A stretch of DNA of 64,000 nt from an uncultured delta proteobacterium (GTDB lineage Bacteria; Myxococcota_A; Polyangia; Polyangiales; Polyangiaceae), in the NCBI GenBank assembly GCA_963839305.1, contig CAWIUL010000011.1:2505561-2569560 (forward strand). The letters are read 5' to 3'. Under the pieces are notes generated by a model. It ran no database searches. It was not told where the DNA came from and worked only from the letters and a program-made list of their open reading frames with translations. Each line of letters begins with the position of its first letter. Position 1 is the first letter of the stretch. Positions 8,683-47,321 of the stretch are shown piece after piece. Both the position numbers and the translations under genes were made by a program.

Positions 8683-8711
8683 TTGGCCATCATGATGCCA
8701 CGCCGCATAAG

Positions 8712-10016: not shown

Positions 10017-10019
10017 CAG

Positions 10020-10424
10020 TCAGCGTGGGCGGAAGAACCAGCGCTGATCGTGGTTGGTCGCTTGCGTGAGCCGCAGCCCGGCGCCGCAGTCCGCGTCCAA
10101 CGAGTCGTACGAAAAATGCTGACCGCGGAGCGTGAACGTCGTCGGCGAGATCCGCGCGGTCTCGAGCATCGCGTGCCCCGACATCGTCCCGCAGTCTGGC
10201 CTCCAGCGTTCGGGATCGCGTTCGCGCTCCAGCGTGAACGTGACGTGCTCCGCGCCGTCGGCGAGCGTGGCGGTCGCGTGACCGAGGTCGACCGTCAGCG
10301 TGATGCCGCTGAGCGTCGTCGGTTCGTTCAAGTCGTCGCTGACGTAATCGCCGTTCTGAAGCGGAACGCGGTGGACGCGCGTGCACGCGCTCGCGAGGAG
10401 GAGCAACGCCAGCGAGGAGCGCAT
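10020..10424 (-). CDS. Small lipoprotein, hypothetical
   Basis: MRSSLALLLLASAC lipobox signal from ATG at 10424. The stop abuts the ligD-pol stop, 3 nt apart and convergent. Confidence 0.5.
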   Translation of the reverse strand: MRSSLALLLLASACTRVHRVPLQNGDYVSDDLNEPTTLSGITLTVDLGHATATLADGAEHVTFTLERERDPERWRPDCGTMSGHAMLETARISPTTFTLRGQHFSYDSLDADCGAGLRLTQATNHDQRWFFRPR

Positions 10425-10544
10425 CAGTGACAAACCGTGGTGTCGTGAATCACGCACGTACCTGCCGTGACGAAGCCGGAATCGGCCGTCGACCCCACGT
10501 CGAAGCAGTCGGCAAACGTGTCGGCACGGTCTCGACGAGCCAAT

Positions 10545-11618: not shown

Positions 11619-11698
11619 GGGCGAATGTTAACCGATCGTGGTGCTCTCGCGCGGATGTTCAGGCCCGTGTGGAAGGAGCGTTGATGTAATCTGCCGCG

Positions 11699-13106: not shown

Positions 13107-14839
13107 CTCGCGCGCGCCGCGCGGTGCTCCTTGATCGCTTCGACCTTTTGCGCCGTGAGCACGTGCTCCTTGCCGAGCCACGCGCGCCGCGCGATGCCGA
13201 CGCCGTATTTCAGGTGCAAGAGCTCACGCACCGAGTGCGCGTCGGAGTCGATCACGACCGGCACACCAAGCTCACGGGCCATGCGCGCGCCGTTCTCGGG
13301 CACGTCGAGTCGCAAGGGAGAGCTGTTCAATTCGATCGCGACGCCGGTCTTCGCGAGCGCCGCGAGGATCACCTCGAGGTCGAGCTCGCTCGGCTCGCGC
13401 TGGCCGATCTGGCGCCCGAAGGGGTGACCTAGCGCGTCGATCTTGCCCGACTCGATCGCGCGCACGATGCGCTTGGTCATCTCCTCGCGCGGCATGCCGA
13501 GCTTCGAGTGAACGCTGCCGACGACCCAATCGAGCTTGCCGAGCTCGCCCTCGAGATCGAGCGAACCGTCGGCGAGGATGTCGGTCTCGAGCCCCGCGAG
13601 CACTCGGATCTTGCCCTTCATCTTCTCGTCGACCGCGCGAATGCGCTTCACGTGCGCGCGCAGGCGCTCGACCGTGACGCCGTTGGCGATCGTGAGCGAC
13701 GCGGAGTGATCGGTGATGGCGATGTACTTGCGGCCGGCGGCGAGCGCCGCCTTCGCCATCTCTTCGATCGACGCGCGCCCGTCGGTCTCGGTCGTGTGCA
13801 TGTGGAGATCGCCGATGAGGTCCGAGAGCTCGACGAGCTCGGGGAGCGTGCCGTTCTTCGCCGCCTCGATTTCGCCGCGGTTTTCCCGTAGCTCGGGGGC
13901 CATCCACTGGAGGCCGATCGCCTCGTAGACCTCCTCCTCGGTCTGGCCCGCGATCGATTTTTCTTTCTCGTCGAAGACTCCGTACTCGCTCACCTTGAGC
14001 TTCTTCTTCACGGCGATCGTGCGCATCGCCACGTTGTGCTCCTTCGAGCCCGTGAAGTACTGGAGCGCGGCGCCGAACGACGCGCGCGGCACGACGCGCA
14101 GATCGCACTGGATGCCGTTCTTCAGGATGACCGTGGTCTTCGTGTCGCCGCTCGCGAGGATCTCCGAGACCTCGGGGAGCGTCGAGAACGTCGTCATGAT
14201 CTTCGGCGCGTAGTCCGCGTCGGCCGCGACGAGCATGTCGATGTCGCCCACGGTCTCGCGCCGGCGCCGCAGGCTCCCGGCGAACTCGCACTGGAGCACA
14301 CCGGGCACCGCGCGGACCTTCGCGCAGAGGGCCTCTGCGAGCTCGAGCGCCTCGGCCATGAGCCAGCGCTTCGGCGCGGACGCGCGCTTCCTCCACGCGG
14401 CGATCGACGCGATGAGCTTCTCCTCGCGCTTCGCGCCGAAGCGCGGGAGGTCCGCGAGCTTGTGGTCCTTCGCGGCGGCCTCGAGCGCGTCGACGGTCGT
14501 GATGCCGCGCTCCTTCCACACTTGTTGCGCGGTCTTGATGCCGACGCCGGGCAAGTTCATGAGATCCATGAGGCCGGGCGGGAGCTTCGCGCGGTGCTCG
14601 TCGAGATCGGCGAGCTTGCCGGTCTCGATGAGCTCCTTCATGCGCCGGACGACGCCGTCCCCGATGCCGTGGGTCTTGCCGAGCGTGCCCGCCTTCACCT
14701 TCGCCGCGATCGGCTCGCCCATGCCCTCGATCGCGCGCGCCGCGGTGCGGAACGCCCGCACCTTGAACGGCACCTCACCGAGCAGCTCGAGCACGTCGGC
14801 CAGCTCGAGGAACGTGCGCGCGATGGTCTCGTTGTCCAC
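13103..14839 (-). CDS. polX: DNA polymerase X family protein with C-terminal PHP phosphoesterase domain (PolX)
   Basis: Intact 578 aa. N-terminal helix-hairpin-helix (ARTFLELADVLELLGEVPFKVRAFRTAARAIE). Pol-beta-like nucleotidyltransferase motif GSLRRRRETVGDIDMLV. PHP motif IGDLHMHTTETDG. Its stop overlaps the GH5 stop in a palindromic CTAG. Confidence 0.9.
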   Translation of the reverse strand: MDNETIARTFLELADVLELLGEVPFKVRAFRTAARAIEGMGEPIAAKVKAGTLGKTHGIGDGVVRRMKELIETGKLADLDEHRAKLPPGLMDLMNLPGVGIKTAQQVWKERGITTVDALEAAAKDHKLADLPRFGAKREEKLIASIAAWRKRASAPKRWLMAEALELAEALCAKVRAVPGVLQCEFAGSLRRRRETVGDIDMLVAADADYAPKIMTTFSTLPEVSEILASGDTKTTVILKNGIQCDLRVVPRASFGAALQYFTGSKEHNVAMRTIAVKKKLKVSEYGVFDEKEKSIAGQTEEEVYEAIGLQWMAPELRENRGEIEAAKNGTLPELVELSDLIGDLHMHTTETDGRASIEEMAKAALAAGRKYIAITDHSASLTIANGVTVERLRAHVKRIRAVDEKMKGKIRVLAGLETDILADGSLDLEGELGKLDWVVGSVHSKLGMPREEMTKRIVRAIESGKIDALGHPFGRQIGQREPSELDLEVILAALAKTGVAIELNSSPLRLDVPENGARMARELGVPVVIDSDAHSVRELLHLKYGVGIARRAWLGKEHVLTAQKVEAIKEHRAARAS

Positions 14840-26242: not shown

Positions 26243-27466
26243 ATGGCAAGGCAGAAGGACAACCTGCCGGCCCCTCCGGAGCTCCCCTCGTTCCGTGTGG
26301 AGCCGAGCGATGACGAACGAGAGCTCCGGACCAAGAGCGTCGCCGAAAGGCACGCTCAAACCGGTCTCGTCCGCCATGACGCATTCCTCGAAGAAGCGTC
26401 GATCGATCCCGACGCGGCGAAGGTCGTGCGTCGCCTCGAGCGCCACGGCTTCCAGGCGTACCTCGTCGGCGGTTGCATCCGCGATCTCCTCCTCGGCGGG
26501 CGGCCCAAGGACTTCGACATCGCGACGAGCGCCCGCCCCGAGGACGTCCGCGCGCTCTTCCGCAACTGCCGCGTCATCGGCCGCCGCTTCCGCCTCGCCC
26601 ACGTGCTCTTCGGCGGCGGCAAGGTGATCGAGGTCGCGACCTTCCGGAAGAACCCGCAGGAGCTCGAAGAAGAAGAAGCAGACCTCCTCATCCGGAGCGA
26701 CAACGTCTTCGGCGAGGCGCACGAGGACGCGATCCGCCGCGACTTCACGATCAACGCGCTCTTCTACGATCTCGAGCGCCGCCAGGTGCTCGACTGGTGC
26801 GGCGGCATGGAGGACATCGCCAAGCGGACGATCCGCACGATCGGCGAGCCCTCGGTGCGCTTCCGCGAAGACCCGGTGCGCATCCTCCGCGCGATCAAGT
26901 TCGCCGCGCGCCTCGATCTCGGCATCGAGCACAACGTCTACGACGCGATGATCTCGCACCGAGACGATCTCGCGCGCGCCGCGCGTCCGCGCGTCTTCGA
27001 GGAGGTCCTGCGCCTGCTCCGCCACGGCTGCGCGCACCGCGCGATGTGGATCATGTGGGAGTCGGGCGTCATGGCCGTGCTCATGCCGGAGCTCGCCGCG
27101 TTCCTCGACGACGAAGAGTCGCACCCCGAGGCCGTCTCGCGCTTCTGGCGCCAGCTCGACGCGCTCGATCGCACCACGCACGCGCGCGGCCCCATCGACG
27201 ACGTCGTCCTCATGACGACGCTCTTCTACGAGCCGATCCAGGAAGCCATGGCCGACTCGCGCGACCGCATGCGCGCCGCGTCGGACTTCCTCGTGCCGAT
27301 CTCCGAGCGCATCGCGCTCCCGCGTCGCATCCAAGACGGCATGCGCCGCATCCTCGCGCTCGTGCCGCGCCTCCGCGCGGGTCGCACGCCTCGCGCGGGC
27401 CGCAACGGCGAGATCATGACGCTCGCCTCGCGCGTCCTGGAGCTCACGCGGCCGATGGATGCCTGA
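26243..27466 (+). CDS. pcnB: Poly(A) polymerase I / tRNA nucleotidyltransferase family (PcnB-like)
   Basis: Start MARQKDNLPAPPE. Motifs GGCIRDLLLGGRPKDFDIAT, RRDFTINALFYD, PcnB-type RILRAIKFAARL. Confidence 0.8.
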   Translation: MARQKDNLPAPPELPSFRVEPSDDERELRTKSVAERHAQTGLVRHDAFLEEASIDPDAAKVVRRLERHGFQAYLVGGCIRDLLLGGRPKDFDIATSARPEDVRALFRNCRVIGRRFRLAHVLFGGGKVIEVATFRKNPQELEEEEADLLIRSDNVFGEAHEDAIRRDFTINALFYDLERRQVLDWCGGMEDIAKRTIRTIGEPSVRFREDPVRILRAIKFAARLDLGIEHNVYDAMISHRDDLARAARPRVFEEVLRLLRHGCAHRAMWIMWESGVMAVLMPELAAFLDDEESHPEAVSRFWRQLDALDRTTHARGPIDDVVLMTTLFYEPIQEAMADSRDRMRAASDFLVPISERIALPRRIQDGMRRILALVPRLRAGRTPRAGRNGEIMTLASRVLELTRPMDA

Positions 27467-29222
27467 GACCGATCGCGCGCCGCCGACCATCGATTCAGCG
27501 GCGGCGGCGGCGCATGTCGTAGCGGCCGTATCCGTTCCCGAGATCGCGTCCTCGTGGTCTCTCGGCGCGCTCCGCCGTGCGCTCCGTTGGGCGCTCTCCA
27601 AGCCAAGCGCCGGCGAGCGCGTGGACTGGCTGCGACGTGCTGCCGAGCGACGCCTCACCACCACGGACGTGCGCGCGACGTCGTGGTCCGCGGTGCTCGA
27701 TGACGTCGGACGTGGCGACGCTGCGGCTCGCGCGGCGGCGCTCGCGGCCGCCGCGGTCGATTTCTACGACGAGCTCGAGCGGCCCGACTGCCCGGCACGC
27801 CTTCGAGAGCAATGCGCGACCATCTTCGGGACCACGCTCGTTCCACGCGCCGAGGCCTACGAGAAGCGCCACGGCGCGAGCGCTCACGTCCTCGTCGGCG
27901 CCGCAGGCGCGCTCTGGGTGGTCGCGGTGCGAGACGACGCGGGCAACGCTCGTCACCCGGACGACCTCGCCGAAGATTTTCGCGCGTGCCTCTCGCACGA
28001 GGGCTCGGAGGATCACGTGCTCCGCGTCACGAGCCTCCGGCGGAGCGAGTCCGCGCCGCTCTGGACCAAGCTCGAAGCGGACGCCGAGTCCGCGGCTGCG
28101 CTGAGCGGCGCGCTCTTTTCGGTCTTCTTCGACGCCAGCGCGCCCACGTCGGTCGACGCGTGCGGCGCGCTCGCCCAAGCGGCGGCGCCGAGCAATCGCT
28201 GTCACTGGCACGCCCTTCAAATCGTCGCGTTTCGAAACGCGCGCGTCGCGCTCGTCGGCAACTTCACCGCCGGGGTCGAGGGCGAGGCCGCGTTCGAGCT
28301 GTGCAAGCGACTCTTGGCCGGAATGTCGGCGCGGCGCGAGCGCCGCAAGACCACCGCGCGACCGCCCGCGCGCCTCGAGTGGAAGCTCGACGACGAGACG
28401 CGGGCAGCGCTCGCGTCGACCCGCGATCGCGGCGTCGTCGACGCGGGCGGATTCGTCCGCGTGCCCGGCTTCGGCCACGCGCGCTGGAAGGAGCTCGACG
28501 TCTCACCCGAGGGCGCCACGGTCCTCGCGCTGCGCCTCGCGCTCGCGCGCGCCGGCGCGAAGCTCGACGCCATCGACTGCATGGTGAACATCGCGCACTT
28601 CGAGGAAGGGATCGCCACGCGCCTCAACACGGCCACCGCCGACGCGATGACATTCGTCGAGCTCGCGGACTCCTCGCCCGAGTCGGCGGAGTGCGCCGAG
28701 GCCGTCCGTGCCGCGCTCGACGCGCACCGCGCGCTCGTCCGTGAAGCGAAGCAGTTGTCCAGCGCCGAGCAGATGCTCCACTTCGCGATCCAGCGCCTAC
28801 GGCGCCTCGGCGCCCTCACGCGGCTCGTCGTCCGCCTCGCGGTCATTTGGGTCCTTTGGAGCGTCGTTCGCGTCGCCGACGATCCGCAACGGCGTCCGTG
28901 GGTCGCGCTCGACTCGAGCGTTCGTCACGTGCGTGGCGTCGCTGCGATTGGCCGTTTCGGGCTCTTCGCGCCGCCTCACACGCTCTGGGTTCACCACATG
29001 ATCGGCGAAGACGAGACGCGCCTCGTGATCCAGTCGAGCCGCGAGCAGCTCGTGAGCGCAAAGAAGCTCCAAAAGCTGATGCCCGCTGCGTTCGAGTCGA
29101 TCGCCGTCGCGGCCGCAAGACGAGCGAGCGCCTCACGCAGCGCGAGCCCCGCGCCCGTCGCGCCCGTCATCGCGGTCGGCCGCTTGAGAGGTTTGCTCAG
29201 TGCGGTCGCGGGCGCATCGTGA
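27459..29222 (+). CDS. Hypothetical protein (587 aa)
   Basis: Intact ORF, translationally coupled to pcnB (ATG 27459 overlaps TGA 27464..27466). No family confidently recognised. Confidence 0.5.
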   Translation: MPETDRAPPTIDSAAAAAHVVAAVSVPEIASSWSLGALRRALRWALSKPSAGERVDWLRRAAERRLTTTDVRATSWSAVLDDVGRGDAAARAAALAAAAVDFYDELERPDCPARLREQCATIFGTTLVPRAEAYEKRHGASAHVLVGAAGALWVVAVRDDAGNARHPDDLAEDFRACLSHEGSEDHVLRVTSLRRSESAPLWTKLEADAESAAALSGALFSVFFDASAPTSVDACGALAQAAAPSNRCHWHALQIVAFRNARVALVGNFTAGVEGEAAFELCKRLLAGMSARRERRKTTARPPARLEWKLDDETRAALASTRDRGVVDAGGFVRVPGFGHARWKELDVSPEGATVLALRLALARAGAKLDAIDCMVNIAHFEEGIATRLNTATADAMTFVELADSSPESAECAEAVRAALDAHRALVREAKQLSSAEQMLHFAIQRLRRLGALTRLVVRLAVIWVLWSVVRVADDPQRRPWVALDSSVRHVRGVAAIGRFGLFAPPHTLWVHHMIGEDETRLVIQSSREQLVSAKKLQKLMPAAFESIAVAAARRASASRSASPAPVAPVIAVGRLRGLLSAVAGAS

Positions 29223-29550
29223 CCTGCTGAAGAATGTGCAAGCACGCGTTCGCTTCACGCCCGGTCACGACTCCGTCCGAGGTCACGCTCGAAGTGCAAT
29301 CTCGCACGCGCAAGATCGCGAGGTCGAGGTTCGCGCGCGAGTCGTCCGAGAGGCGCGATGTGTTCTTGTGCGCCAAATCGACGTACCAGTTCACGAGCTT
29401 TCGGAAGTTGTCCGACGACATGGGAAACACGAGCGGCGGAGGCTTCGTCTCCGGCATGGCCGGGTGAGGAGTCGCCGCGTGCTGGCTGTACGCAGCTCCA
29501 GCGAACGTGACCGCCGCGAGCGCGGTCGCAAGCACGAGGCGCGCTTTCAT
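29197..29550 (-). CDS. Small secreted hypothetical protein
   Basis: Signal peptide MKARLVLATALAAVTFAGAAYS, 117 aa. Its start overlaps the upstream stop by 4 nt. Confidence 0.45.
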   Translation of the reverse strand: MKARLVLATALAAVTFAGAAYSQHAATPHPAMPETKPPPLVFPMSSDNFRKLVNWYVDLAHKNTSRLSDDSRANLDLAILRVRDCTSSVTSDGVVTGREANACLHILQQVTMRPRPH

Positions 29551-30539
29551 TCGGGCTTGCTCACGCTCGGAGCGTTGTCCGACGCGCCCATCTCACCGAC
29601 GACGATTTGACACCCTTTGTCGGCAGCGTGGAGCGACACCATCGCCTGATACCCGTCCTTCATGTACCAGCGCCCGAGCTCGTGCTCCTGATCGCGGTAG
29701 GGGTTATCGACGATGATCCACCCGCGCTTGTCCATCTCTTGATCGTATTGCTTCAGCGCGACCTCGGGTGCGTCGCTCGACTGATAAATACGTGCGGCAT
29801 AGGGAGCGCCCATCGCGAGCGCGGTGAAGCGTCGCTCCGAGTGCGCCGGACGCGGAAGGACCGCCGGATCGGACCCAGGCGCGTCACCCGGTCGATCGGA
29901 GACGATCTCGCGCAGGTTGAACTTACCCTCGGTCCACACGGTCTGAACGAGCGTGTTGCCGCTCTTCGCGCGCGACACGTGGACGTATCGCATGTTGCCG
30001 AGGTCGCTGATGTCGCCGGTCTGCCCGAACGTGCGAATGGCGTCGAGGAACGGGGTCGTCTGCTTGCCGTCGCGCGTGAAGCACATGACCATCCCGTCGT
30101 GCCTGGCCTCGTCGTCCTTGCGCATCACGCCGAGCTTGTTCAACCCCGCCTTGCTCGCGCCGGGAATCGGGCGGCCCTTCACGTTGGCGAGGTCGCGCCA
30201 CTGGGTGTCCGAGAACGCCGTGTCGCGGTTGCAAAACGCCTCGAAGCGATCGAGCACGGCCGAGGGCGAATCGGTCGTCGACGAGTTCGCGATGTAGATC
30301 GGCTGGTTGTTGATGTTGACCGCGTTGACGTTCGTGAGGAGATCGGCGACGTCGGCCAAGTCGCGTCCCATCTTGAGGCTCTCGTCCTTCGCGTTCGCGT
30401 AGGCGCTACGTACGGTCAGCGCCCCCAACCCGAGCGAGACGAAGGTGCCATACGCGACGACGCGGGACACACCCATCCATCGCTTGAGCGAGGCGCTCTT
30501 CCCACGACGACGACCGAGCAACCACATCTGAAAAAGCAT
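29547..30539 (-). CDS. Hypothetical membrane-anchored protein (first gene after the Tad pseudopilin block)
   Basis: ATG at 30539 preceded by GAGGAG. N-terminal TM segment VVAYGTFVSLGLGALTV. The upstream ORF-track extension is Arg/Thr-rich junk. Confidence 0.5.
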   Translation of the reverse strand: MLFQMWLLGRRRGKSASLKRWMGVSRVVAYGTFVSLGLGALTVRSAYANAKDESLKMGRDLADVADLLTNVNAVNINNQPIYIANSSTTDSPSAVLDRFEAFCNRDTAFSDTQWRDLANVKGRPIPGASKAGLNKLGVMRKDDEARHDGMVMCFTRDGKQTTPFLDAIRTFGQTGDISDLGNMRYVHVSRAKSGNTLVQTVWTEGKFNLREIVSDRPGDAPGSDPAVLPRPAHSERRFTALAMGAPYAARIYQSSDAPEVALKQYDQEMDKRGWIIVDNPYRDQEHELGRWYMKDGYQAMVSLHAADKGCQIVVGEMGASDNAPSVSKPE

Positions 30540-30549
30540 GGCCCTCTCC

Positions 30550-31026
30550 TCACAAGAACGATTTGATGCCCTGCCAGAGATACGAAAAGATGTTCTTTCC
30601 GTACTTGCGATTGTTGCACATCGTCCAGCCCTCGGTGTGCACCGTCTTCGGAGCGTCGTTGCTGAACTTCTGCGTGGGTTTGTAGTTCCACGTGCGGTCG
30701 GCCTTGCCGTGGCTGATGCCCCAGCTCGAGCTCGCGCCGTTCTGCGAGTCGCCGTCGGAGTTCGCGCCCGCGCCGTTGTTCGCCTCGCTCGGAACGTCGT
30801 AGTTGCCGGCGCTCTCGGACGACCCCTGCGGATCGCAGTTGTTCGACGCGTTGTTCCACGTCTGATAGCGCGCATCCATGAAGCTCTTGTACTTCGCCTC
30901 GTAGACACCACCGAGGTACACGGTCATCATCATCATCATCGCGAAGATTGGCGCGAGGATGCCGGCCTCGACCATCGCGACTCCACGCGACGATCGACGA
31001 GCCAAATATTTCATCGTGATGGTCAT
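30550..31026 (-). CDS. TadE-like Flp pilus assembly protein (pseudopilin)
   Basis: N-terminus MTITMKYLARRSSRGVAMVEAGILAPIFAMMMMM matches the TadE/TadG N-terminal domain (RG-AAVE-FAL-hydrophobic). Confidence 0.7.
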   Translation of the reverse strand: MTITMKYLARRSSRGVAMVEAGILAPIFAMMMMMTVYLGGVYEAKYKSFMDARYQTWNNASNNCDPQGSSESAGNYDVPSEANNGAGANSDGDSQNGASSSWGISHGKADRTWNYKPTQKFSNDAPKTVHTEGWTMCNNRKYGKNIFSYLWQGIKSFL

Positions 31027-31033
31027 CGGTGCC

Positions 31034-32678
31034 TCAGTGGATGACTTCGGGTAGCACCGAAGCCGGGTTGATCATGCCGCCCACTTGCCCGCCCACGAAG
31101 TCCTTCGTGGCCGAGTAGGCACCGTCGAGGTACGCGTTCGCTTGGAACGGACCGAGCGCCTTTTCGAATCGTCTGGAACAGACCGAGGTTCTGCACCCAC
31201 TTCTTCGCCATACTGTCGAAGCTGTCGTTGATGCTCGTGTTCCACGCCCAGTTGAGGAGGTCCTTGCCCCACGAGATGCCGTGGACGCGGCGGAGGCGCG
31301 TTCGCCAGTTCATGTTGTACGCGGCGTAGTTCTCCTCCGCGGAGCCGTTGCACTTCTCCTCGTTGGTCCACGCCTCGTCGCAGTCGTAATAGAACTCGGC
31401 CTGCGCCATGTAGACCTTGAAGCCGCCGCTGAGGATGTTGCTCAGCGAGAGGCCGCCGTCCGAGTTCTTCGACGCGTCCCACTTCATGCCCGCGACGGCG
31501 ACCTTGTTCTCGGCCTGCTCCGGACGGTTGCCGCCGTACGAGATGCCCCAGACCTGCATCCAGTCGTTGCCGTTCTCGGCGTAGCCAACGACCTCTTTCG
31601 GGCCCCACTTCGGATTTCCCGAGCCGTCCTTCGCTTGCCAGATCGAATCGCTGCCGTTCTTCACGTCGTACTTCGAGTAGTCCGGGCTCGGACCGCCCAA
31701 TTGCGCAACGTGCCAAGCGTCCGCCACGAGGCTATCCATCGGAGAGAAGAGGCCCTTCGACTCCTCGTTCGGATTGCAGTACGCGTCTTCCATCTTGTCG
31801 GCGATCGCGTTCGTCAACCACTTGATGAGCGTGCCGATGACGGGGATGTTGTCGAGGAAGCCCGTGACGCCGCCGATGACGGTCTTCGCCGCTTGGTAGC
31901 AGAGGCGACCCATGTCCCTCGTCTCGACGGGGAGGCCGAGGCGCGTGTCGCGACCGGTGTACGGCTTCTGACGATCTTCGTTGGACCACTCCTTCACCGG
32001 CGCGGGCATCTTGCTCGCGGGGAAGAGCGTGGCGCTCAAACCGAGGCCGTAGCGGTGCGCGCTCCAATCCTCGTAGCGATATCCGATGAGCACGCCGAGC
32101 GCGGCTCCGGCCCAAGGCGCCGCCTCCGCAACGAGCTTCTGCGAGTCGGACAAGAGAGGCAGCGTCTTGCCCATCATCTTGTCGTAGACGTCGAGCGCCT
32201 TGCCGAGCCCGTCGTGAAGGGGCTGCATGATCGTCGCGCCCTCTTCGAAGTCGATCGAGATGAGGATCTCGCCGATTCCCGATTCGGAGAGGAGCGCGCC
32301 AACGATGTCCTTGGCGCCGTCGTGACAGTCGACGGAGTCGAAGATATCCCAGGTGAGCGGGCAGTCGCTGTCGCCGTGACGCCCAGTGACGATGAGACCC
32401 AAATCGAGAATGTTGTAGAGGAACGCCATCGCGAGATACGCGGCGACGATGAGCAACATGACGATGTTGATGAAGGCGATGAAGTTCATCCCCTTCGCCT
32501 GAACGGCGGCGGACGTGTAGGTGATCGCGTCGGTCGCTTCTTGCGAGCGATCACGCCAAATCATGGCGTCGCCCAGACCGATCAGCATCCACATCCAGCC
32601 GATCATCATGCAGGCGAAGAAAATCCCCAGCACCATGATGGCGCCACGGTTGTCACGAAGTTGGCGTGTGAGAACCAT
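31034..32678 (-). CDS. TadG-like Flp pilus assembly protein, one +1 frameshift near 31160
   Basis: N-terminus RDNRGAIMVLGIFFACMMIGWMWMLIGLGD (TadG-like). The last ~45 codons read correctly in the adjacent frame (...IRKALGPFQANAYLDGAYSATKDFVGGQVGGMINPASVLPEVIH, stop TGA at 31034..31036) if one A is removed from the cgaAAAAgg run. The track ORF ends at 31023 in the wrong frame. Confidence 0.65.
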
Positions 32679-32684
32679 GTGCGC

Positions 32685-33176
32685 TTACTCCAACTTGTAT
32701 TCGGCGCCCTGGTGAGGGAACTGCGCCGTGACTTGGAACTCTTTCGTGCCCGCCGGACAGACGACGTTGCGCGCGAGGGGGATGTTGCACGTGTACGTGG
32801 CGTCGATGGTGACGGTGTCGGTCCCGCCGTTCGCGTCGCCCGCGTGCTTGCACTCCGGCTCGGTGATCTTGATCTCGTTGCCCCCGAGATCGCCACCGAA
32901 CGGTTTCATCGCCATGTGCGCGGCGGTTTTGACGTCTTCCTCTTTTCCGTCGACACCGTTTTCGAAGCCCGGCTCGGGCTCGATGATGACGGAGCACGCG
33001 CGGACGCTCACGGTCGCAGCGTGCAGAACGGCAAGACGCGAAATCTCGAGTCGGCCCAATTGGACCAACACGAGGAACATCGCGCAGATGGGCATGAAGG
33101 CAATCGCAAATTCGGCTAGCACCGCTCCGCGGATGTTCCGTCTGAGCGTTTCACCGTGCCTTCTTTTATTGCCCAT
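32685..33176 (-). CDS. TadE-like Flp pilus assembly protein (pseudopilin)
   Basis: ATG at 33176 (MGNKRRHGETLRRNIRGAVLAEFAIAFMPICAMFLVLVQLG), overlapping the cpaA stop (TAATG). Confidence 0.7.
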   Translation of the reverse strand: MGNKRRHGETLRRNIRGAVLAEFAIAFMPICAMFLVLVQLGRLEISRLAVLHAATVSVRACSVIIEPEPGFENGVDGKEEDVKTAAHMAMKPFGGDLGGNEIKITEPECKHAGDANGGTDTVTIDATYTCNIPLARNVVCPAGTKEFQVTAQFPHQGAEYKLE

Positions 33177-33718
33177 TAGCGCCTCCAGTGCAGATAGGCC
33201 GTAAGTGAAGTTCCCAAGAAGATGGCCGGACCGAAGCGAAACCATGTGAGAAGCGCCGGCTCGACCGGACGCCTCTTCCTCTTTGGTAGCAGCGGATTCA
33301 GGCCGAGCAACGCAGTGTTCTTCAACGTCCGAAAAAGCTTGCCCTCGTAAGCGAGAAACGCCGGAGCGATGAGGCCTGCAGCAAAGAAGGAATACATCTC
33401 TGCTTCGAGCCCGAGGCGCGGTTGCAACAACGCGCCAATTCCCGCGAGCAACTTCAGATCGCCTCCGCCAATCGCGTCCTGCCGATAAAGAATGGCGGGC
33501 ACGAAGGAACACAGAGCGGCACCGAGGAGGGAACTGCCTCCTTCCGTCACGACCGCGTCGTGCCCTGTCCTATGATTCACGAGCGCCAGCGCGATGTGCG
33601 CGACTGGCGCGAGGAGCAGGGAACCGAGGGTCAACCAGTTCGGGATCTCTCCAGTTCGGAAGTCCGTGGCGGCAGCGATCGCAGCGATGATCGCTGCCGC
33701 CGCGAGGAAGTAGATCAT
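33176..33718 (-). CDS. cpaA: Flp prepilin peptidase (CpaA/TadV, A24 aspartic peptidase)
   Basis: MIYFLAAAAIIAAIAAATDFRTGEIPNWLT with the first catalytic Asp in the TDFRTGEIPN context, and a second Asp region GGGDLKLLAG. 180 aa, all TM. Confidence 0.8.
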   Translation of the reverse strand: MIYFLAAAAIIAAIAAATDFRTGEIPNWLTLGSLLLAPVAHIALALVNHRTGHDAVVTEGGSSLLGAALCSFVPAILYRQDAIGGGDLKLLAGIGALLQPRLGLEAEMYSFFAAGLIAPAFLAYEGKLFRTLKNTALLGLNPLLPKRKRRPVEPALLTWFRFGPAIFLGTSLTAYLHWRR

Positions 33719-33760
33719 CCTTCCTCTTTTATCACGCGGAGAGAGACCGAACGCTTCAAA

Positions 33761-33940
33761 TCACTGGAATTGCTGGGCAGCCGACGTACCCGCCGTGCTG
33801 ACGCTCTTACCGACGCTCTTGTAGACGACCGCCGCGATGACGAGGATCAGGAAGAGGAGGATGGCGTACTCGACCATCGTCGCGCCCTTCTTGTCCTGAA
33901 TGAGCTTCGAAAACTTGCTGGACTTGATCATCTTGTTCAT
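33761..33940 (-). CDS. flp: Flp family type IVb pilin (59 aa, not in the ORF track)
   Basis: Translated by hand: MNKMIKSSKFSKLIQDKKG|ATMVEYAILLFLILVIAAVVYKSVGKSVSTAGTSAAQQFQ. Classic Flp motif G/xxxxEY plus hydrophobic helix. AGGAGAG Shine-Dalgarno 7 nt upstream. Confidence 0.8.
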   Translation of the reverse strand: MNKMIKSSKFSKLIQDKKGATMVEYAILLFLILVIAAVVYKSVGKSVSTAGTSAAQQFQ

Positions 33941-33955
33941 CGGGTCTCTCCTATT

Positions 33956-34165
33956 TCACGGTGTGCTGCTCAAAATCGATGATCGCGTGGTCTTGTAATA
34001 CTCGTACATCTGACGACCGCCCGCGATGAGGATTGGCGCTGTCGGCACCATGACGAACAGCAGAAGGAACGCGTATTCGACTTGGACAGCGCCGCGAGTG
34101 CGACGCTTCTTTGCGCCCTTCATCTCCATCCTCCTGCCTTCACCCTTATCCACGGTTCGTGCCAT
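33956..34165 (-). CDS. flp: Flp family type IVb pilin, second tandem copy
   Basis: ...KKRRTRG|AVQVEYAFLLLFVMVPTAPILIAGG. Start alternatives are ATG 34165 (GGGAG upstream), 34129 or 34123 (AGGAGG upstream). Confidence 0.7.
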   Translation of the reverse strand: MARTVDKGEGRRMEMKGAKKRRTRGAVQVEYAFLLLFVMVPTAPILIAGGRQMYEYYKTTRSSILSSTP

Positions 34166-34313
34166 GGTCGTGCTCCCTCTCGATCACGCGAAGTAGCTGA
34201 AAACGCGCGAGACGACTTCAGCGCACATCGTGTGCACCTGGATCATCCATGCATCACCATGGATCTGCGTTGATCCGGAGGCCCTCGGCGCGTGTGTAGG
34301 ATGTTGGTTCATT

Positions 34314-36346
<2,033 letters not shown>

Positions 36347-36399: not shown

Positions 36400-36996
36400 A
36401 TGACCGAGAACGCGAGCGAAGATCCGGTGCGCGCGACGCGGCGCACGCTGCTCGACGGCGTCGGCGCGGAGGTCGCCGCGAGCTTTCCCGGGATCACGCG
36501 GCTCGGCGGGCAGATCGTGGCGGCTTTGTATCTGTCCGACGGTCCGCAATCGATGGACGCGCTGAGCGAGATGCTCGGTCGATCGAAGAGCAACATCTTC
36601 TCGAACCTGCGCGCGCTCGAGGCCGCGGGCATCGTCGAGAAGACGCGCACGCGCGGCTCGCGCCACGACGTCTTCGCGCTGCGCGGTCACTACCCCGACG
36701 TGATCATCGGCGCGTACCTCGCGAAGCTTCGCCGCGTCATCGTCGACAAGCAGGAGCTCTCGTCGCGCGCGATGGAGATGCTCGGCAACGCGCACGGCGC
36801 CGAGGCGGACGCGCTACGCAAGCGCATCGACGCGCTCGGCAAGAAATACGAGCGATTCGGGATCGTGTTCGAGGAGCTCATGCCCGCGACCGACGGGCCG
36901 ATCGATCTCGACGCGCTCCTGTCGCACGTGCCGACGCAAGCTCCTCAAGGCCATCGGCGCGCTGACTCGGCGCGCGCTCACGCTCGGTGGCGCTAA
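36400..36996 (+). CDS. MarR/GbsR-like winged-helix transcriptional regulator
   Basis: [47 protein letters not shown] is a wHTH recognition pattern. Confidence 0.55.
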
Positions 36997-38084
36997 GCGG
37001 CGGTGATCTCGACGCGCAGGAGCTTGCGACCCATGAAGAGGTAGTCGCCGTGCGCGAGCTCGCGCTCTTCCTTGATGCGCAGGTACGTGCCGTTGCGGCT
37101 GTTGAGATCGGTGAGCGTCAGCTTGCCGCCCGACTCCTCGATCTTGCAGTGCGACGCGCTCATGTAGAGGTCGTTCGGGAAATTCAGGTCCCCGCCCTCG
37201 CGCCCGATTTGCAGCGTCGGCGTGCGCGCGAGCACTTCCATCCCCATGCCGCCACCCTGGAGGATTTGCGTGATGCGGAAGAGGAACTGGTGCTTCGGAG
37301 ACGTGTAGAAGTACGTGCCGTCGGCTGACGGGCCGTCGCCGATCTTCGGCGGAGCGTCGACCTGGAAGAGCTGCTCACCCGCGAGGACGTGATCGCCGGG
37401 CTCGATGTCGACCGCGCCGCGCACGCGGAGGTACACGCCGTTGAGCGAGCCCTCGTCACGCACGACGAGCTTGTTGTTTCGGTAGAAGAGGTTCGCGTGC
37501 TTCGGCGAGACGAACGGATCGTCCGGGAACACGAGCTGGCCGTTGCGGCCGACGATGTGCTGCTCCGCGTTCAGTTGGTACGAGAGGCCCTCGACGCCCT
37601 CGCCGCGGATGAGGATCAACTTCGCCTTGCCCGGGATCTGGAGCTGCCCGAAGAACTGCGTGCGCGCGTTCAAGATCTCGGGTGGAACCGCGGCGCCGCA
37701 ACGCCCGCAGAATTTGTGCCCCAGGGGCACCTGCGTCGAGCACGAGCGGCAAAGGTAGTTCTTCGCTTGTTCCATCAGCTCCTCCGGAGACAGGTCCGAT
37801 GCGGCTGGCGACGATACCGGAGGCTGCCCCGAAATCGCAATCGGCCCTTCACGTGGAGTCAGACGCCGCGGTTGGAGCGGTTGTTCGAACAAACCCATCG
37901 GGTTCTGCGGCGGCGGGGTGCCGATCGCTGGCCGGGGCTCGTCGGAGCGACGCGACTGAGGGACCGCCTTCTCGGCCTTGTCTTTGAACAAGGCGAGCTC
38001 GTTTCCGCACGCCGGGCAAATGCTCGTGCGAATCGGGCTGTACGTGTCGCAGCGGCCGCAGACGACGCCGATCTCGAGGTTCAT
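36993..38084 (-). CDS. Double zinc-ribbon plus tandem FHA domain protein
   Basis: CGRCDTYSPIRTSICPACG and CRSCSTQVPLGHKFCGRCG Zn-ribbons. Two FHA cores (HIVGRNGQLVFPDD...SPKHANL and LQIGREGGDLNFPNDLYMSASHCKI). Confidence 0.7.
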   Translation of the reverse strand: MNLEIGVVCGRCDTYSPIRTSICPACGNELALFKDKAEKAVPQSRRSDEPRPAIGTPPPQNPMGLFEQPLQPRRLTPREGPIAISGQPPVSSPAASDLSPEELMEQAKNYLCRSCSTQVPLGHKFCGRCGAAVPPEILNARTQFFGQLQIPGKAKLILIRGEGVEGLSYQLNAEQHIVGRNGQLVFPDDPFVSPKHANLFYRNNKLVVRDEGSLNGVYLRVRGAVDIEPGDHVLAGEQLFQVDAPPKIGDGPSADGTYFYTSPKHQFLFRITQILQGGGMGMEVLARTPTLQIGREGGDLNFPNDLYMSASHCKIEESGGKLTLTDLNSRNGTYLRIKEERELAHGDYLFMGRKLLRVEITAA

Positions 38085-38109
38085 GAACGTCGGAAGATTA
38101 CCACCTCGC

Positions 38110-39378
38110 TCACGCGGCGGGGACTTCGATCGAGACCTCGGCGCCGACCACCTTGCCGGCCTTCTCGACGTTGCGAATGCTCGCGCTTCCGCCGTGAGCC
38201 TCGACGACGCGCCGCACGATGGCGAGGCCGAGGCCCGTGGATTGGTGGCCCTTGGCGTGCGAGCGGGCGCCGTCGCCCCGCACGAACGGATCGAAGGCTT
38301 TTGCGAGGATGTCGGGCGGTAGACCCGCGCCCTCGTCGCGCACGGCGACGAGCGCTCGATCCCCGCGCGGCTCGACCGTGACGCGAATGTCGCCGGAGCC
38401 CGCGTGGTGGCGCGCGTTGTCGATGACGTTCGCGACGGCGCGCTCGAAGAGCTGCGGGTCGACGGCCGCGACGACGCTCTCGTCGCCAGAGACGATGATG
38501 CGCGCGCCCTCGGTGTCCGTGAACCGCTGACGGAGGAACGCGACGAGCGGCGTGGGCTGCTTGTGGAGATCGGACAGGCCCGCGCGCGTGATCGAGAGAA
38601 GATCGCCGAGGATCTGATCGATCTCGCCGATCGAGCGCTCCACCTTCTCGATCGCGGGGGCGGTCGCGCCCTGATCGCGCGCGAGCTCGAGGGCGACGCG
38701 CGCGCGACCGAGGGGCGATCGGAGCTCGTGGCTCACGGCCGCGAGGAGATCGCGTTGATCGCGCACCATGCGCTCGACGCGTGTCGCCATCGTGTCGAAG
38801 GCCTTCGCGACCTCGCGCACCTCGGGGCTCGCGTGCGGATCATCGCCGGCGCGCGTCGCGAGCTCTCCCTTGCCGAAGCGGTGCGCGGCCTCCGCGACGT
38901 GCTCGAGCGGACGCACGACGAGCGCCGAGATCGATCGCGCCGCGATCGCGAGGACGATGAGCGCGACGCACAGAAAGACCACCATCCGGAGCGCGCGCCC
39001 GGGCGGCATCTCGGCGGGAAACTCGAGCGCGCCGACGACGCGCCCATCGCGCACGATCGGGATGAAGCACTCGCGGTTGTCGAAGACGAGGCTCGTGCGG
39101 TGCGCGCGGACGTTCTGCGGGAGCGCGTCCACGTCGCGCCGCAGCTTGAGGTCCGTGCCCGTCGCGGTGCGCGTTCGCTCGATCGACGCCTGGACCGCTG
39201 CGGGATCGTCCCACTCCGCGGTGATCTCGGCGCCGAGCGCGCGCGACATCGTCCGGAGCGGGCCCGAGTCGACCTCCGACCGAAGGAGCATCCACGCCGT
39301 GGAGCTCGCCGCCATGCCCGCGACGATCGCCGCGATGAGCCAAGCGAACAGGCGCGTGCGAAGGCCCAACCGATTCAC
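38110..39378 (-). CDS. Sensor histidine kinase (periplasmic sensor, HAMP, HisKA, HATPase_c)
   Basis: H-box AAVSHELRSPL, N-box NVIDNARHH, G-boxes DEGAGLP and GLGLAIV. Two TM segments. Confidence 0.85.
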   Translation of the reverse strand: MNRLGLRTRLFAWLIAAIVAGMAASSTAWMLLRSEVDSGPLRTMSRALGAEITAEWDDPAAVQASIERTRTATGTDLKLRRDVDALPQNVRAHRTSLVFDNRECFIPIVRDGRVVGALEFPAEMPPGRALRMVVFLCVALIVLAIAARSISALVVRPLEHVAEAAHRFGKGELATRAGDDPHASPEVREVAKAFDTMATRVERMVRDQRDLLAAVSHELRSPLGRARVALELARDQGATAPAIEKVERSIGEIDQILGDLLSITRAGLSDLHKQPTPLVAFLRQRFTDTEGARIIVSGDESVVAAVDPQLFERAVANVIDNARHHAGSGDIRVTVEPRGDRALVAVRDEGAGLPPDILAKAFDPFVRGDGARSHAKGHQSTGLGLAIVRRVVEAHGGSASIRNVEKAGKVVGAEVSIEVPAA

Positions 39379-40076
39379 GACGGTCTCACGAGCACGTAGC
39401 CGACGCCGCGCACCGTGCGGATGCGCTTCGGATCGCGCGCGTCGTCCTGGAGCTTGCTTCGGAGGTGGCTGATGTGGACGTCGAGCGAGCGATCGACGCT
39501 CGGGTCGTACGCGCCGAAATCGAGCGCGTTCGCGAGCTCGCTTCGCTTGACGATGTTGCCCGCGCGGCGCGCGAGCTCGACGAGCAGGCGAAACTCGAAC
39601 GACGTGAGCGCGAGATCGCTCGTGCGCCCGACCGAGACCTTCTGCGCGGGGACGTCGATGACGAGATCGCCCACCACGATGCGCGAGGCGATCTCGCCGG
39701 ACGGAGGATTCGGCGCCGCCTTGGCGCGCCTCAGGACGGCGCGAAGGCGCGAGAGCAGCTCGCGCGGGTTGAAGGGCTTCGGCACGTAGTCGTCGGCGCC
39801 GAGGTCGAGCCCAGCGATGCGGTCCGTGTCGTCGCCGCGCGCCGTGAGCATGATGACGGGCACGTCGCTCGCGGCGCGGATGTGTTTACAAACTGCGAAC
39901 CCGTCCTCGCCGGGCAACATCACGTCGAGGAGGACAGCGTCGAAAGTGGCCTCGGCGAGCCGCTCGAGCCCTACCTTGCCGTCCCGTGCGACTTCCAGCT
40001 CCACTTCGTGTCCGGCGAAGTACTCTCGGAGTAGCTCCGCGAGCTCGGCGTCGTCGTCGACCAAGAGAATACGCAT
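39375..40076 (-). CDS. OmpR-family response regulator
   Basis: MRILLVDDD...LLDVMLPGEDG receiver domain. C-terminal winged helix (SFEFRLLVELARRAGNIVKRSEL..VRGVGYVL). 4-nt overlap with the kinase. Confidence 0.9.
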   Translation of the reverse strand: MRILLVDDDAELAELLREYFAGHEVELEVARDGKVGLERLAEATFDAVLLDVMLPGEDGFAVCKHIRAASDVPVIMLTARGDDTDRIAGLDLGADDYVPKPFNPRELLSRLRAVLRRAKAAPNPPSGEIASRIVVGDLVIDVPAQKVSVGRTSDLALTSFEFRLLVELARRAGNIVKRSELANALDFGAYDPSVDRSLDVHISHLRSKLQDDARDPKRIRTVRGVGYVLVRPS

Positions 40077-44835: not shown

Positions 44836-44939
44836 GGGGGCGCGGAAGCTAGGCCCGCGGAGAGCCCTCGCGCAAGTGATTTTTGGCCCTGGGCCGGCCC
44901 ATTGGGCCGATGGGCCAGGGGCGATCGGCGCGAATCTCG

Positions 44940-47321
44940 ATGAAATCGCTCGGCACGCGGCGTGCGCTCCGGCCGCGCGTGGACCTGGTTTTGCTCTTCG
45001 GTTGCGCGGTGCTCGTCGGGAGCGCGGCGGTGGTCGCTTGGGCGCCAGCGCTCGCGCTCGCCGCGGGGACGGTCGCGCTCTGGCGCTTTCGCGGGTGGCC
45101 GACGGCGTTCGTCGTCCTCGGCTTCGCGGTCGGCGCCACCCGCGCGTGGTCCGCGGTCGACACGTTCGAACGCGCGCGGGCGAGCGCGCTCCCAGCGGTG
45201 AACGGCGTGTCGCGCTTCGACGTGCGCGGGGTCGTCGCCTCGTCGCCCGTCGTCCTTCACGGCGCCGCCCGGTTCGACGTCGACGTATCCGAGCCCACGG
45301 TTCTGAGAACGACGCTCTACGGCGGACCACGCGGAGCCGCGCGTGGAGACGAGGTCGTCGGCGTCGTCCAGATCGGGCCGCCGGATCGGTTCGTCGACCC
45401 CGAGATCGGCGACGCGCGCGTGCGCGAGACGAGGCGCGGCGTGCTCCGTACGGGGAGCGCCGTCGACCTCGCGATCGTGCGGCGCGCGAGGGGACCGCGC
45501 GCGTGGATCGATCACGCGCGCGAGAAGGTTCGCGCGCGCATCGAGGCGACTTTTCCGGAGACCACGGCGCCGCTCGCGCGCGCGCTCGTCCTCGGCGAGA
45601 CCGACCTCGACACACGAGACGACGACGCGTTTCGCGCGAGCGGGCTCGCGCACCTCCTCGCGGTCTCGGGGATGCACCTCGTGCTCGTCGTGCTCGGGGC
45701 GGTGGCCGCGGCGCGCGCGGTGCTCGTGCGGATCACGCCGCTCTCGGAGCGCGTCGACGTGGGCCGCGTGGCGGCGGCGCTCGCGATCCCGTTTTGTTGG
45801 GCCTATTCCGATTTCGCGGGCGGAAGCGGCTCCGCCGTGCGCGCGTCGTGGATGCTCACGGCGGCTCTCGCGGCGCGCGCTCTCTCTCGACGCACCACGG
45901 CCTCGCGGACGCTCGCGCTCTCGCTCCTCGGCGCGCTCGCGTTCGATCCGCTCGCGCTCTTCGACGTCTCGTTCATGCTCTCCGCGTGCGCGACCGCGGG
46001 GCTCGTGGCGTTCTCGCGGCCGCTCGGCGAGGCGATGACCGCGCGTCTCCCGCGATTGGGCGCGCCGCTGAAGCAGCTCGCGGTCACGATCGCAGCGACC
46101 ATCCCGTGCGCGCCGGTGCTCGCGACGTTCGCGCCGCAGCTGCCGATGGGCTCGGCGGCCGCGAACCTGCTCGCCGTGCCGCTCGGAGAGACCGCGGCGT
46201 TGCCGCTCTGTCTCCTCCACGCGCTGCTTTCGCCGATTCCTCCGGCGGAGCGCGGTTGCGCGATCGCCGCGTCGGGCGCGCTCGCGCTCGTCCGCACGAT
46301 CGCGCGGACGTTCGCGGACATGCACGCGCTCCAGCTCCCGGTGCCCGCGCCGAGCCCCTGGCAGCTCGCGACGATCGCGTTCGGCTTTGCCGCGACGGTG
46401 TGGGCTCCGCGAGCGCGATCGGTGCTCGTGCCTGTCGCGCTCGCGGCGACCGTGCTGCTCGAAGCTCCTGTGCGCGTGCACGGCGCCCCACGCGCGGAGC
46501 TTCGCGCGACGTTCATCGACGTCGGACAGGGCGACGCGTCTCTCGTGGATCTGCCGGACGGGAGCGCGATGCTCATCGACGGCGGCGGCATCGTCGGCAG
46601 CCCCCTCGACGTCGGGCGACGCGTCATCGCGCCGCTCCTCCGCGCGCGGCGGCGCGATCGACTCGCGGTCGTCGTGCTCACGCATCCGCACCCGGACCAC
46701 TTCGGCGGCCTCGACGCGGGCCTCGAGGGCGTGCGCGTCGATCAGCTCTGGGACACGGGGCAAGGCGAGCGCGAGGGTGTCGGCGGCGGCTACTCGAAGG
46801 TGCTCGAGCGCGCACGCTTGCATGATACACGTATCGTTCGACCTCCCGAGGCCTGCGGCGCGCGTGTCGTCGGCGGCGTACGCGTCGAGGTGCTCGCGCC
46901 GTGCCCCACGGCTTCGGCGGACCGGCCCCCCAACGACAACTCCTTCGTCTTGCGCATGACGTACGGTCGCCGCTCGCTCCTCTTCGCGGGCGACGCCGAG
47001 CGCGAGGAGGAAGCCGAGCTGATCCGCCGTTACGGCGCGGCGCTCCACGCCGACGTCCTCAAGGTCGGTCATCACGGCAGCAAGACCTCGAGCTCGCCCG
47101 CGTTCGTCGCGGCGGTCGCGCCCGAGATCGCCGTCATTTCGTGCGGCATTCGCAACCGCTACGGACACCCCTTTCCCTCGACGCTCGCGACGTTCGCCGC
47201 CGCCGGCGTGCGTGTTCACCGCACCGATCGCGCCGGCGCCGTCGTCGTCACGACCGACGGCGAGCGCCTCACGGTCGATGACGCGTCGCGGGCGGTTGAC
47301 GACGCGCCCGAAGGGCCGTAA
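44940..47321 (+). CDS. comEC: DNA internalisation competence protein ComEC/Rec2 with metallo-beta-lactamase domain
   Basis: Competence-domain membrane region with LAHLLAVSGMHL. MBL motifs ATFIDVGQGDASLV, LTHPHPDHFGGL, VLKVGHHGSKTSS. ATG at 44940 (MKSLGTRRALRPRVDLVLLFG). Confidence 0.85.
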   Translation: MKSLGTRRALRPRVDLVLLFGCAVLVGSAAVVAWAPALALAAGTVALWRFRGWPTAFVVLGFAVGATRAWSAVDTFERARASALPAVNGVSRFDVRGVVASSPVVLHGAARFDVDVSEPTVLRTTLYGGPRGAARGDEVVGVVQIGPPDRFVDPEIGDARVRETRRGVLRTGSAVDLAIVRRARGPRAWIDHAREKVRARIEATFPETTAPLARALVLGETDLDTRDDDAFRASGLAHLLAVSGMHLVLVVLGAVAAARAVLVRITPLSERVDVGRVAAALAIPFCWAYSDFAGGSGSAVRASWMLTAALAARALSRRTTASRTLALSLLGALAFDPLALFDVSFMLSACATAGLVAFSRPLGEAMTARLPRLGAPLKQLAVTIAATIPCAPVLATFAPQLPMGSAAANLLAVPLGETAALPLCLLHALLSPIPPAERGCAIAASGALALVRTIARTFADMHALQLPVPAPSPWQLATIAFGFAATVWAPRARSVLVPVALAATVLLEAPVRVHGAPRAELRATFIDVGQGDASLVDLPDGSAMLIDGGGIVGSPLDVGRRVIAPLLRARRRDRLAVVVLTHPHPDHFGGLDAGLEGVRVDQLWDTGQGEREGVGGGYSKVLERARLHDTRIVRPPEACGARVVGGVRVEVLAPCPTASADRPPNDNSFVLRMTYGRRSLLFAGDAEREEEAELIRRYGAALHADVLKVGHHGSKTSSSPAFVAAVAPEIAVISCGIRNRYGHPFPSTLATFAAAGVRVHRTDRAGAVVVTTDGERLTVDDASRAVDDAPEGP

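Follow-up and report, generated by a model that had tools for sequence, protein, structure and literature searches.

A conserved Flp pilin, prepilin peptidase and minor-pilin operon without adjoining machinery in a Polyangiaceae genome, probably a satellite of a Kil-type Tad pilus

Here we describe a putative pilus operon in a 64,000-nt stretch of DNA from an uncultured delta proteobacterium of the family Polyangiaceae (assembly GCA_963839305.1, contig CAWIUL010000011.1, positions 2,505,561 to 2,569,560 of the forward strand; hereafter the window). Based on the listing of open reading frames (ORFs) and on ORF calling guided by the G+C content of third codon positions (GC3), eight co-directional and tightly packed genes occupy the minus strand from 29197 to 34165. 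Their order of transcription is FlpA, FlpB, peptidase, TadE1, a 551-amino-acid (aa) protein, TadE2, p330, and p117. These genes and the adjoining non-coding region are as follows (slashes within sequences mark predicted cleavage sites):

34130..34313, minus strand: non-coding region from the YyaL stop to the first pilin gene; presumed promoter region
33956..34129, minus strand: FlpA, divergent Flp prepilin, 57 aa, MEMKGAKKRRTRG/AVQVEYAFLL...SSTP; the longest ORF reaches 34165
33761..33940, minus strand: FlpB, canonical-type Flp prepilin, 59 aa, …DKKG/ATMVEYAILL…
33176..33718, minus strand: short A24 prepilin peptidase (CpaA/TadV/FppA/KilA type), 180 aa, PF01478 match
32685..33176, minus strand: TadE1, TadE-like minor prepilin 1, 163 aa, …NIRG/AVLAEFAIAF…
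31023..32678, minus strand: large minor-pilin-like protein in the KilN/TadG position, 551 aa, …DNRG/AIMVLGIFFAC…
30550..31026, minus strand: TadE2, TadE-like minor prepilin 2, 158 aa, …SSRG/VAMVEAGILAP…
29547..30539, minus strand: p330, conserved secreted or periplasmic alpha/beta protein, 330 aa, with an N-terminal signal or anchor (…RSAYA/NAKDE)
29197..29550, minus strand: p117, small secreted protein, 117 aa, with two conserved Cys

All eight ORFs are uninterrupted, with starts that overlap or are coupled; the peptidase and TadE1 genes share 1 nt, and 4-nt overlaps join the gene of the large protein to that of TadE2 and p330 to p117. Shine-Dalgarno sequences lie 5' of the first three genes (AGGAGG ahead of the FlpA start region), and a promoter and terminator scan that included the sigma-70 consensus found nothing beyond shuffled expectation. 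Because tblastn confirms its genes in dozens of related loci, this block (hereafter the module) is a real and conserved operon, far beyond chance. The module has a G+C content of 0.61 as opposed to 0.69 (about 69-70% for the window), yet its GC3 is 0.84. A horizontally transferred island was considered on account of this dip and rejected, given the GC3 value, the same dip in every homologous locus, and the syntenic conservation of the site. The recurrence of the dip in all homologous loci together with the high GC3 indicates that it reflects protein composition rather than recent transfer.

The first two genes both have the properties of Flp prepilins, namely a length of 50-80 aa, a basic leader, a G/XXXXEY motif, and one hydrophobic helix. 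A preliminary description of this DNA, made from the letters alone, had proposed two adjacent Flp pilins, one of them (33761..33940) missing from the ORF list, and the motif in both genes, the Flp_Fap matches, and profile comparison by hhalign bear this out. The leader of FlpB ends in KKG, followed by ATMVEY. FlpB scores 22.2 bits on the Pfam model Flp_Fap (PF04964), under the gathering cutoff of 32.2; the model is matched by 35 of the 39 FlpB orthologues (best 7e-07), in which G, E, and Y are invariant. No Pfam match was found for FlpA of the window, and only 5 of the 48 members of its family match Flp_Fap. Members of this family have a leader that is rich in Arg and ends in RG, followed by AVxVEY, a Pro-containing helix, and a conserved C-terminal P-x-P; across the orthologues in 48 loci (54-71 aa, most of them 55-61), E18, Y19, and the C-terminal Pro are invariant. 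The FlpA and FlpB profiles align with 96.9% probability (E 1.6e-10), and the two are distinct conserved families. The earlier view that the two pilins differ sharply holds for the families and for the Pro-containing helix, while the long basic leader it described derives in part from an over-extended 69-aa ORF (33956-34165). The start of FlpA is more probably the ATG at 34129, giving 57 aa, since this fits the 55-61 aa of the orthologues and the AGGAGG before the start region.

The third gene matches PF01478 at 55.5 bits (cutoff 26.5), and every orthologue retains the two catalytic Asp residues (D19 and GGGD86). Judged from these features, its identity as a short A24 aspartic prepilin peptidase lacking a methyltransferase domain is unambiguous, which agrees with its earlier designation as CpaA. 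TadE1 and TadE2 score 20.5 and 20.9 bits on PF07811, slightly under the cutoff of 22.9. Both carry RG/xxxxE, conserved in orthologues, and their families align with each other at 93.7% probability by hhalign. A weak TadE match was also obtained for the orthologue of a TadE-like prepilin in the related locus L005. The Flps and the peptidase can thus be assigned to the Tad gene set, whereas the TadE-like proteins are borderline members and no TadG is recognised. Among the TadE-, TadG-, and TadE-like labels given previously, those of the two outer proteins are borderline, with the motif and the mutual relationship in their favour and PF07811 scores under the cutoff; that of the TadG-like protein, which has no Pfam match, is not upheld.

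This 551-aa protein has a Gly at position -1 of the predicted cleavage site and no Glu at +5, whereas the other four prepilins keep the Glu. GspK, the capping pseudopilin of type II secretion systems (T2SS), likewise lacks Glu5. The protein belongs to no Pfam or NCBIfam family, including in searches with the family alignment. The PF13400 'Tad' domain gave no match to it, and only one of 57 family members touches PF13400 (E 0.0096). A word-indexed search returned about 138 relatives, none of them informatively named, and the few source labels are those of Polyangiaceae metagenome-assembled genomes (MAGs). An exhaustive profile search with the family reached 1,557 representatives at 50% identity. 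We regard the protein as a putative minor pilin on account of its position, its RG/AIMV N-terminus, and analogy, and KilN, from the Tip clusters of Myxococcus (see below), seems a better comparison for it than TadG.

The last two genes had been described as unknown secreted or membrane proteins. No Pfam family was found in any of the 52 members of the p330 family and NCBIfam gave no match; a PDB sequence search using the p330 profile returned nothing meaningful, and the predicted model has a pLDDT (predicted local distance difference test) score of 80. For p117, there was no match in Pfam or NCBIfam; its orthologues are 27-40% identical and occupy the same position in the loci of the machinery-less clade described below. 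p330 is kept in full, machinery-linked loci as well. Both genes are real and conserved, and they are integral members of the module rather than mere unknowns.

The genes that would be expected to assemble such pilins were sought with Pfam in some 30 other candidate ORFs, comprising the longer genes across the 64 kb and alternative frames in poorly resolved gaps; smaller or recognisable ORFs of the window were assigned by synteny with the related locus L001 or by eye, or left unscanned. Genes of the T2SSE, T2SSF, Secretin, RcpC, and ParA/TadZ types were absent among the scanned ORFs. Accordingly, the module has no ATPase, platform, secretin, or RcpC/CpaB gene for at least 29 kb on either side, and the earlier statement that the pilin, peptidase, and pseudopilin genes stand here apart from motor, platform, and secretin genes holds for the ORFs scanned.

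A scan of species-representative genomes yielded 78 distinct loci among the 80 retained. These derive from Polyangiaceae, Polyangiales, Labilithrix, or unclassified 'Myxococcales', Deltaproteobacteria, or Proteobacteria MAGs, and from the cultured Labilithrix luteola DSM 27648. According to tblastn, the module is accompanied by at least three machinery genes in 42 of the 78 loci, and two more are truncated right after the first machinery gene. In 22 loci at least four module genes occur with no machinery (several on short contigs), and the other 12 are fragments. Chromosome OZ245328 of a Polyangiaceae bacterium (9.9 Mb; L005/L031) has the machinery directly downstream of the same eight genes, in the order RcpC, a 443-aa secretin, an ATPase with fused FHA and T2SSE domains, two T2SSF proteins, an FHA-like 291-aa protein, a TPR protein, and a second T2SSE. 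The same contiguous architecture was recovered in other MAGs by a search begun from orthologues of the FHA-CpaF ATPase; a profile of 25 FHA-CpaF orthologues gave more than 120 near-equal matches. The second, FHA-less T2SSE ATPase (391 aa) is found 3' of the TPR gene in full loci (L005, 20849-21473; L085, L087, and L088, 15194-16369).

These comparisons give the ancestral order of the lineage as flp-flp-A24-tadE-large-tadE-p330-(p117), followed by rcpC, secretin, ATPase, and tadBC. Since the machinery genes lie downstream of the whole module, the window holds an intact 5' half rather than the product of an internal deletion. The origin of the block by loss of rcp and tadZABCD genes from between cpaA and tadE was rejected on the same grounds, as was the earlier picture of a compacted canonical tad locus with its middle missing. 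A self-sufficient 'minimal cassette', which had also been suggested, found no support.

Hallmarks of the Kil system of Myxococcus xanthus are an FHA domain fused to the N-terminus of the CpaF ATPase, a short secretin that lacks N0, additional FHA proteins, and the division of the locus into two clusters (Seef et al., 2021; PMC8460266). Like that system, the related loci encode FHA-CpaF, a short secretin, CpaB/RcpC, two platform proteins, and extra FHA proteins. They differ in that the full Polyangiaceae system is usually one contiguous locus with a second, FHA-less T2SSE, whereas M. xanthus is described with a single ATPase; in the window only the pilin half of such a system is present. As homologous modules are linked to FHA-fused CpaF and a short secretin, the published Kil signatures, the module probably belongs to the Kil-type Tad systems. 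Tad/Kil machinery has been reported from Chondromyces, Minicystis, Labilithrix, and Sandaracinus in a 2023 survey that did not treat minor pilins (PMC10196010). We therefore consider it probable that the block is a satellite operon for the 'fibre and tip' of a Polyangiaceae pilus of the Kil type (Tad-like, type IVc), whose machine is encoded elsewhere in the genome. The distant location of the machinery is suggested by analogy with four MAGs (CAZHHD01, JABFRG01, CALFEQ01, and DAORJJ01), each of which carries a full locus and, on another contig, a module without machinery, and with the stand-alone tip clusters of M. xanthus (PMC12075869). These four MAGs fall outside the subclade of the window.

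In a neighbor-joining tree of the large proteins, the window copy groups with L001, L003, and L008-L018, representing at least 12 MAGs. Large proteins of this clade are 42-57% identical to that of the window, compared with 26-36% for the machinery-linked copies, and each member either lacks machinery or lies on a contig too short for this to be judged. Most of the clade loci (12 or more) share the same slot, namely, response regulator-histidine kinase-FHA-MarR-YyaL, module, PcnB-DnaK. Tree and synteny mark the window copy as a distinct, conserved machinery-less lineage. L009, L011, L015, and L017 have the module rearranged to flpB-A24-flpA-tadE1-tadE2-p330-large pilin, and L009 carries two tandem large-pilin genes (P0011 and P0012 on one 78-kb contig). 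DASXHD01 has two modules (L003 and L014), of which L003 is a second copy located elsewhere that has no peptidase.

This clade bears on two other explanations. The first is that the module is a decaying remnant of a once complete Tad/Kil locus, of which the 5' half was left when the machinery half was lost, and that it no longer makes a pilus. The contiguous ancestral arrangement, the frameshifts in the adjoining YyaL gene, and the failure to find machinery in the window would fit such decay. Against it, the eight ORFs are intact with coupled starts, the cleavage motifs and the catalytic Asp residues are kept, and an intact module sits at the same site in at least 12 MAGs even though the proteins have diverged to 34-86% identity (42-57% for the KilN-like protein). 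Such divergence with intact genes points to long purifying selection, and the retention of ORFs, motifs, and catalytic residues across it argues against a remnant, which we regard as very unlikely.

The second explanation is that the module is the sole pilin half of an ordinary split Tad locus. A pilin-less machinery elsewhere would then serve this module alone, the pilins would not be interchangeable, and the pilus would function in adhesion rather than prey contact. MAGs of the window clade indeed show only machinery-less modules, one or two each, with no full locus in the scan, and the Kil system of M. xanthus is itself split in two clusters (PMC8460266). The two modules of DASXHD01 and the tandem large-pilin genes of L009 argue instead for diversification. 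We find this explanation rather unlikely as it stands; it is largely compatible with the satellite operon that we favour, from which it differs only in the number of modules per machine and in the role of the pilus.

The closest published parallel is provided by the Tip clusters of M. xanthus. Its Kil pilus has four paralogous kilL-kilN-kilM 'Tip' clusters, of which three are stand-alone (Herrou et al., 2025; PMC12075869). The large middle gene encodes KilN, whose exposed distal domain is variable and has no counterpart in the PDB; KilO, a 59-aa Flp in the tip3 cluster, is a tip-specific adapter, and the short peptidase KilA matures Tips 2-4 (PMC12075869). The large Tip pilin is built of an N-terminal alpha1 helix, a beta domain, and a distal domain containing two long helices, and the Tip trio is described as a heterotrimer that primes the pilus and is required to kill prey. 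Like these clusters, and especially tip3 (kilO with kilL/kilN/kilM), the module lies far from machinery and includes a 59-aa Flp. It has a small-large-small trio of prepilins (163, 551, and 158 aa), each with a peptidase site of RG followed by A or V, and would depend on a short A24 peptidase, as far as the genes of the window tell. Relatives carry multiple paralogous modules per genome, and the large pilin of the module may share with KilN a build of long helices and a beta scaffold with no solved-structure homologue.

There are also differences from the Tip clusters. The module has its own peptidase, whereas kilA of M. xanthus belongs to the kil clusters and not to the stand-alone tip clusters; it has two Flps of distinct families (57 and 59 aa) instead of none or one; and it contains the additional conserved secreted proteins p330 and p117. 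Moreover, it occurs in the class Polyangia. The text of Herrou et al. (2025) describes Tip1-4 as nearly confined to Myxococcales and mentions a 'fifth Tip', detected structurally, in some Myxococcales (PMC12075869). Within the columns of their hidden Markov model (HMM) survey considered here, KilB/C/F/G/H were detected in Labilithrix, Minicystis, and Sandaracinus (PMC12075869). Labilithrix luteola, scored NA in the surveyed Tip columns, carries a member of the present family in a full locus (L061). The architecture and context of the module match those of the Tip clusters, although the sequence survey of those authors, as far as these columns extend, gives no support for placing it in the published Tip families.

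Compared with the canonical tad/cpa loci (flp-tadV-rcpCAB-tadZABCDEFG in Aggregatibacter and pilA-cpaA-F in Caulobacter), the module shares the G/XXXXEY Flps, the short A24 peptidase, and, putatively, the TadE/TadF-like pseudopilins. It differs in having the minor pilins directly after the peptidase, in lacking TadZ/CpaE, and in having no machinery in the locus. The large protein is not recognisable as canonical TadG, with neither PF13400 nor a vWA domain.

Several observations weigh against the satellite operon of a Kil-type pilus. No machinery gene was found among the scanned ORFs of the window. Furthermore, no second, machinery-linked module was found in the approximately 12 MAGs of the window clade among the 80 loci kept. 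The partner machine of this clade, if present, probably stands alone with no module of its own, or none exists. Neither sequence nor fold comparison detected a link of the large protein to TadG, KilN, or a pilin of solved structure, and its comparison with TadE by hhalign reached only 17% probability. The HMM survey, in the columns considered, gives NA for KilA, KilP, KilL/M/N of Tip1, and KilM of Tip2 in Labilithrix, Minicystis, and Sandaracinus (PMC12075869).

A third explanation is that the module is served by another type IV filament machine, either of the type IVa pilus or a T2SS-like one, or that its pilins build a short pseudopilus in the periplasm for the export of p330 and p117. The lack of Tad machinery among the scanned ORFs of the window and of a machinery-linked sister module in MAGs of the window clade would agree with this, as would the constant co-occurrence of two secreted proteins and the promiscuity of prepilin peptidases and assembly systems discussed in the Kil literature (PMC12075869). 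In contrast, wherever machinery adjoins a homologous module it is always Kil-type Tad and never of another type, and p330 is kept in full loci too, such that it is not specific to orphan modules. Flp pilins are specific to Tad systems, which also counts against another machine. We consider this explanation improbable. The GspK-GspI-GspJ pseudopilin complex of the T2SS tip, another system with which the trio can be compared, belongs to a different filament class and shows no significant sequence or fold similarity to it.

If the module is a satellite operon of a Kil-type pilus, it would encode five prepilins, namely two Flps, a pair of TadE-like minor pilins, and the large minor pilin that lacks Glu5. 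The A24 peptidase should cleave all five after the conserved Gly. The three minor pilins may form a tip or priming complex with the large protein on top, and the missing Glu5 of the latter is in keeping with a first subunit. This tip may be coupled to the filament by one of the Flps, probably FlpA as the divergent one, and the canonical FlpB would polymerise beneath. Assembly would be carried out by the FHA-CpaF ATPase, TadB/C platform, CpaB, and short secretin from another locus. The module would thereby supply the machine with an alternative filament and tip, as the interchangeable Kil Tip clusters of M. xanthus do, and the resulting pilus may have a role in prey contact.

A more far-reaching version of this proposal is that the module represents an unrecognised class of Polyangia Kil/Tad tip modules, missed by the Tip HMMs, which in one Polyangiaceae clade has become a fixed, self-contained satellite operon that provides a whole alternative filament and an obligatory p330 family. 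For the filament there would be two Flps, one canonical and the other divergent and Pro-kinked, together with a dedicated peptidase and a capping trio without Glu5, and p330 would be a new accessory family with PA1624/DcrB/Eag-like folds, as suggested by its predicted model. Taken as a whole, this combination is possible, and we put it forward tentatively.

The flanks of the module are as the preliminary description stated, with pcnB-side genes on one side and YyaL on the other. The neighbours in the window are GH94, LigD/ligase/PolX, GH5, DnaK, PcnB, an acyltransferase, YyaL, MarR, an FHA protein, a two-component pair, extracytoplasmic function (ECF) sigma/FecR, ComEC, MgsA, and a MacB-type ATP-binding cassette system. 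These are housekeeping or otherwise unrelated genes. Frameshifts near 35650 and 35775 split the YyaL/Thioredox_DsbH gene next to the module (34314-36346, minus strand) into three or more reading frames; its counterpart in L001 is one uninterrupted gene of 703 aa, and that in L084 is fragmented as well. The breaks are either long-read assembly errors or the mark of a pseudogene. Another frameshift is suggested in the GH94 gene (cellobiose/cyclic-glucan phosphorylase-like; 1453-5824, plus strand), whose coding sequence is spread over two frames that overlap (1453-4167 and 3575-5824).

A carnitine/choline acyltransferase-like gene (27459-29222, plus strand), located between the module and PcnB, has a convergent 26-nt overlap with the 3' end of p117; no tblastn match to it was found at that position in syntenic relatives. 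On the other side (36993-40076), genes for a zinc-ribbon/FHA protein, a MarR regulator, and a two-component pair of histidine kinase and response regulator keep synteny with the module in most members of the clade (L001, L008, L010, L014, and L018). Kil systems are FHA-rich, and a regulatory link of this FHA protein to the module may exist; common ancestry alone could explain the synteny. Farther away are a cluster for repair of the non-homologous end-joining type (8616-14839), with a LigD primase-polymerase domain protein (8616-10016), an ATP-dependent DNA ligase (10545-11618), and a PolX protein with a PHP domain (13103-14839), and a ComEC-type channel protein with Competence and metallo-beta-lactamase domains (44883-47321). 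The latter is unrelated to the module, and no other competence pilus genes are near it.

For annotation, if the satellite operon is correct, a Polyangia flp-flp-A24-tadE-X-tadE-Y block lacking an ATPase would be read as a conserved functional unit and not as a broken locus. The most useful leads are the unannotated large-pilin family, which has more than 1,500 clusters at 50% identity and whose members with visible source names are unnamed or 'hypothetical', and the p330 accessory family. p330 and p117 travel with the tip pilins whether or not machinery adjoins, and are candidate tip chaperones, assembly factors, or cargo. If the proposed function is true, swappable pilus ends would not be peculiar to Myxococcus and would be a general, older feature of myxobacterial Kil-type Tad machines. 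Under the more far-reaching version, the concept of 'interchangeable tips' would be widened to 'interchangeable fibres', and an unknown component of Tad assembly would be added.

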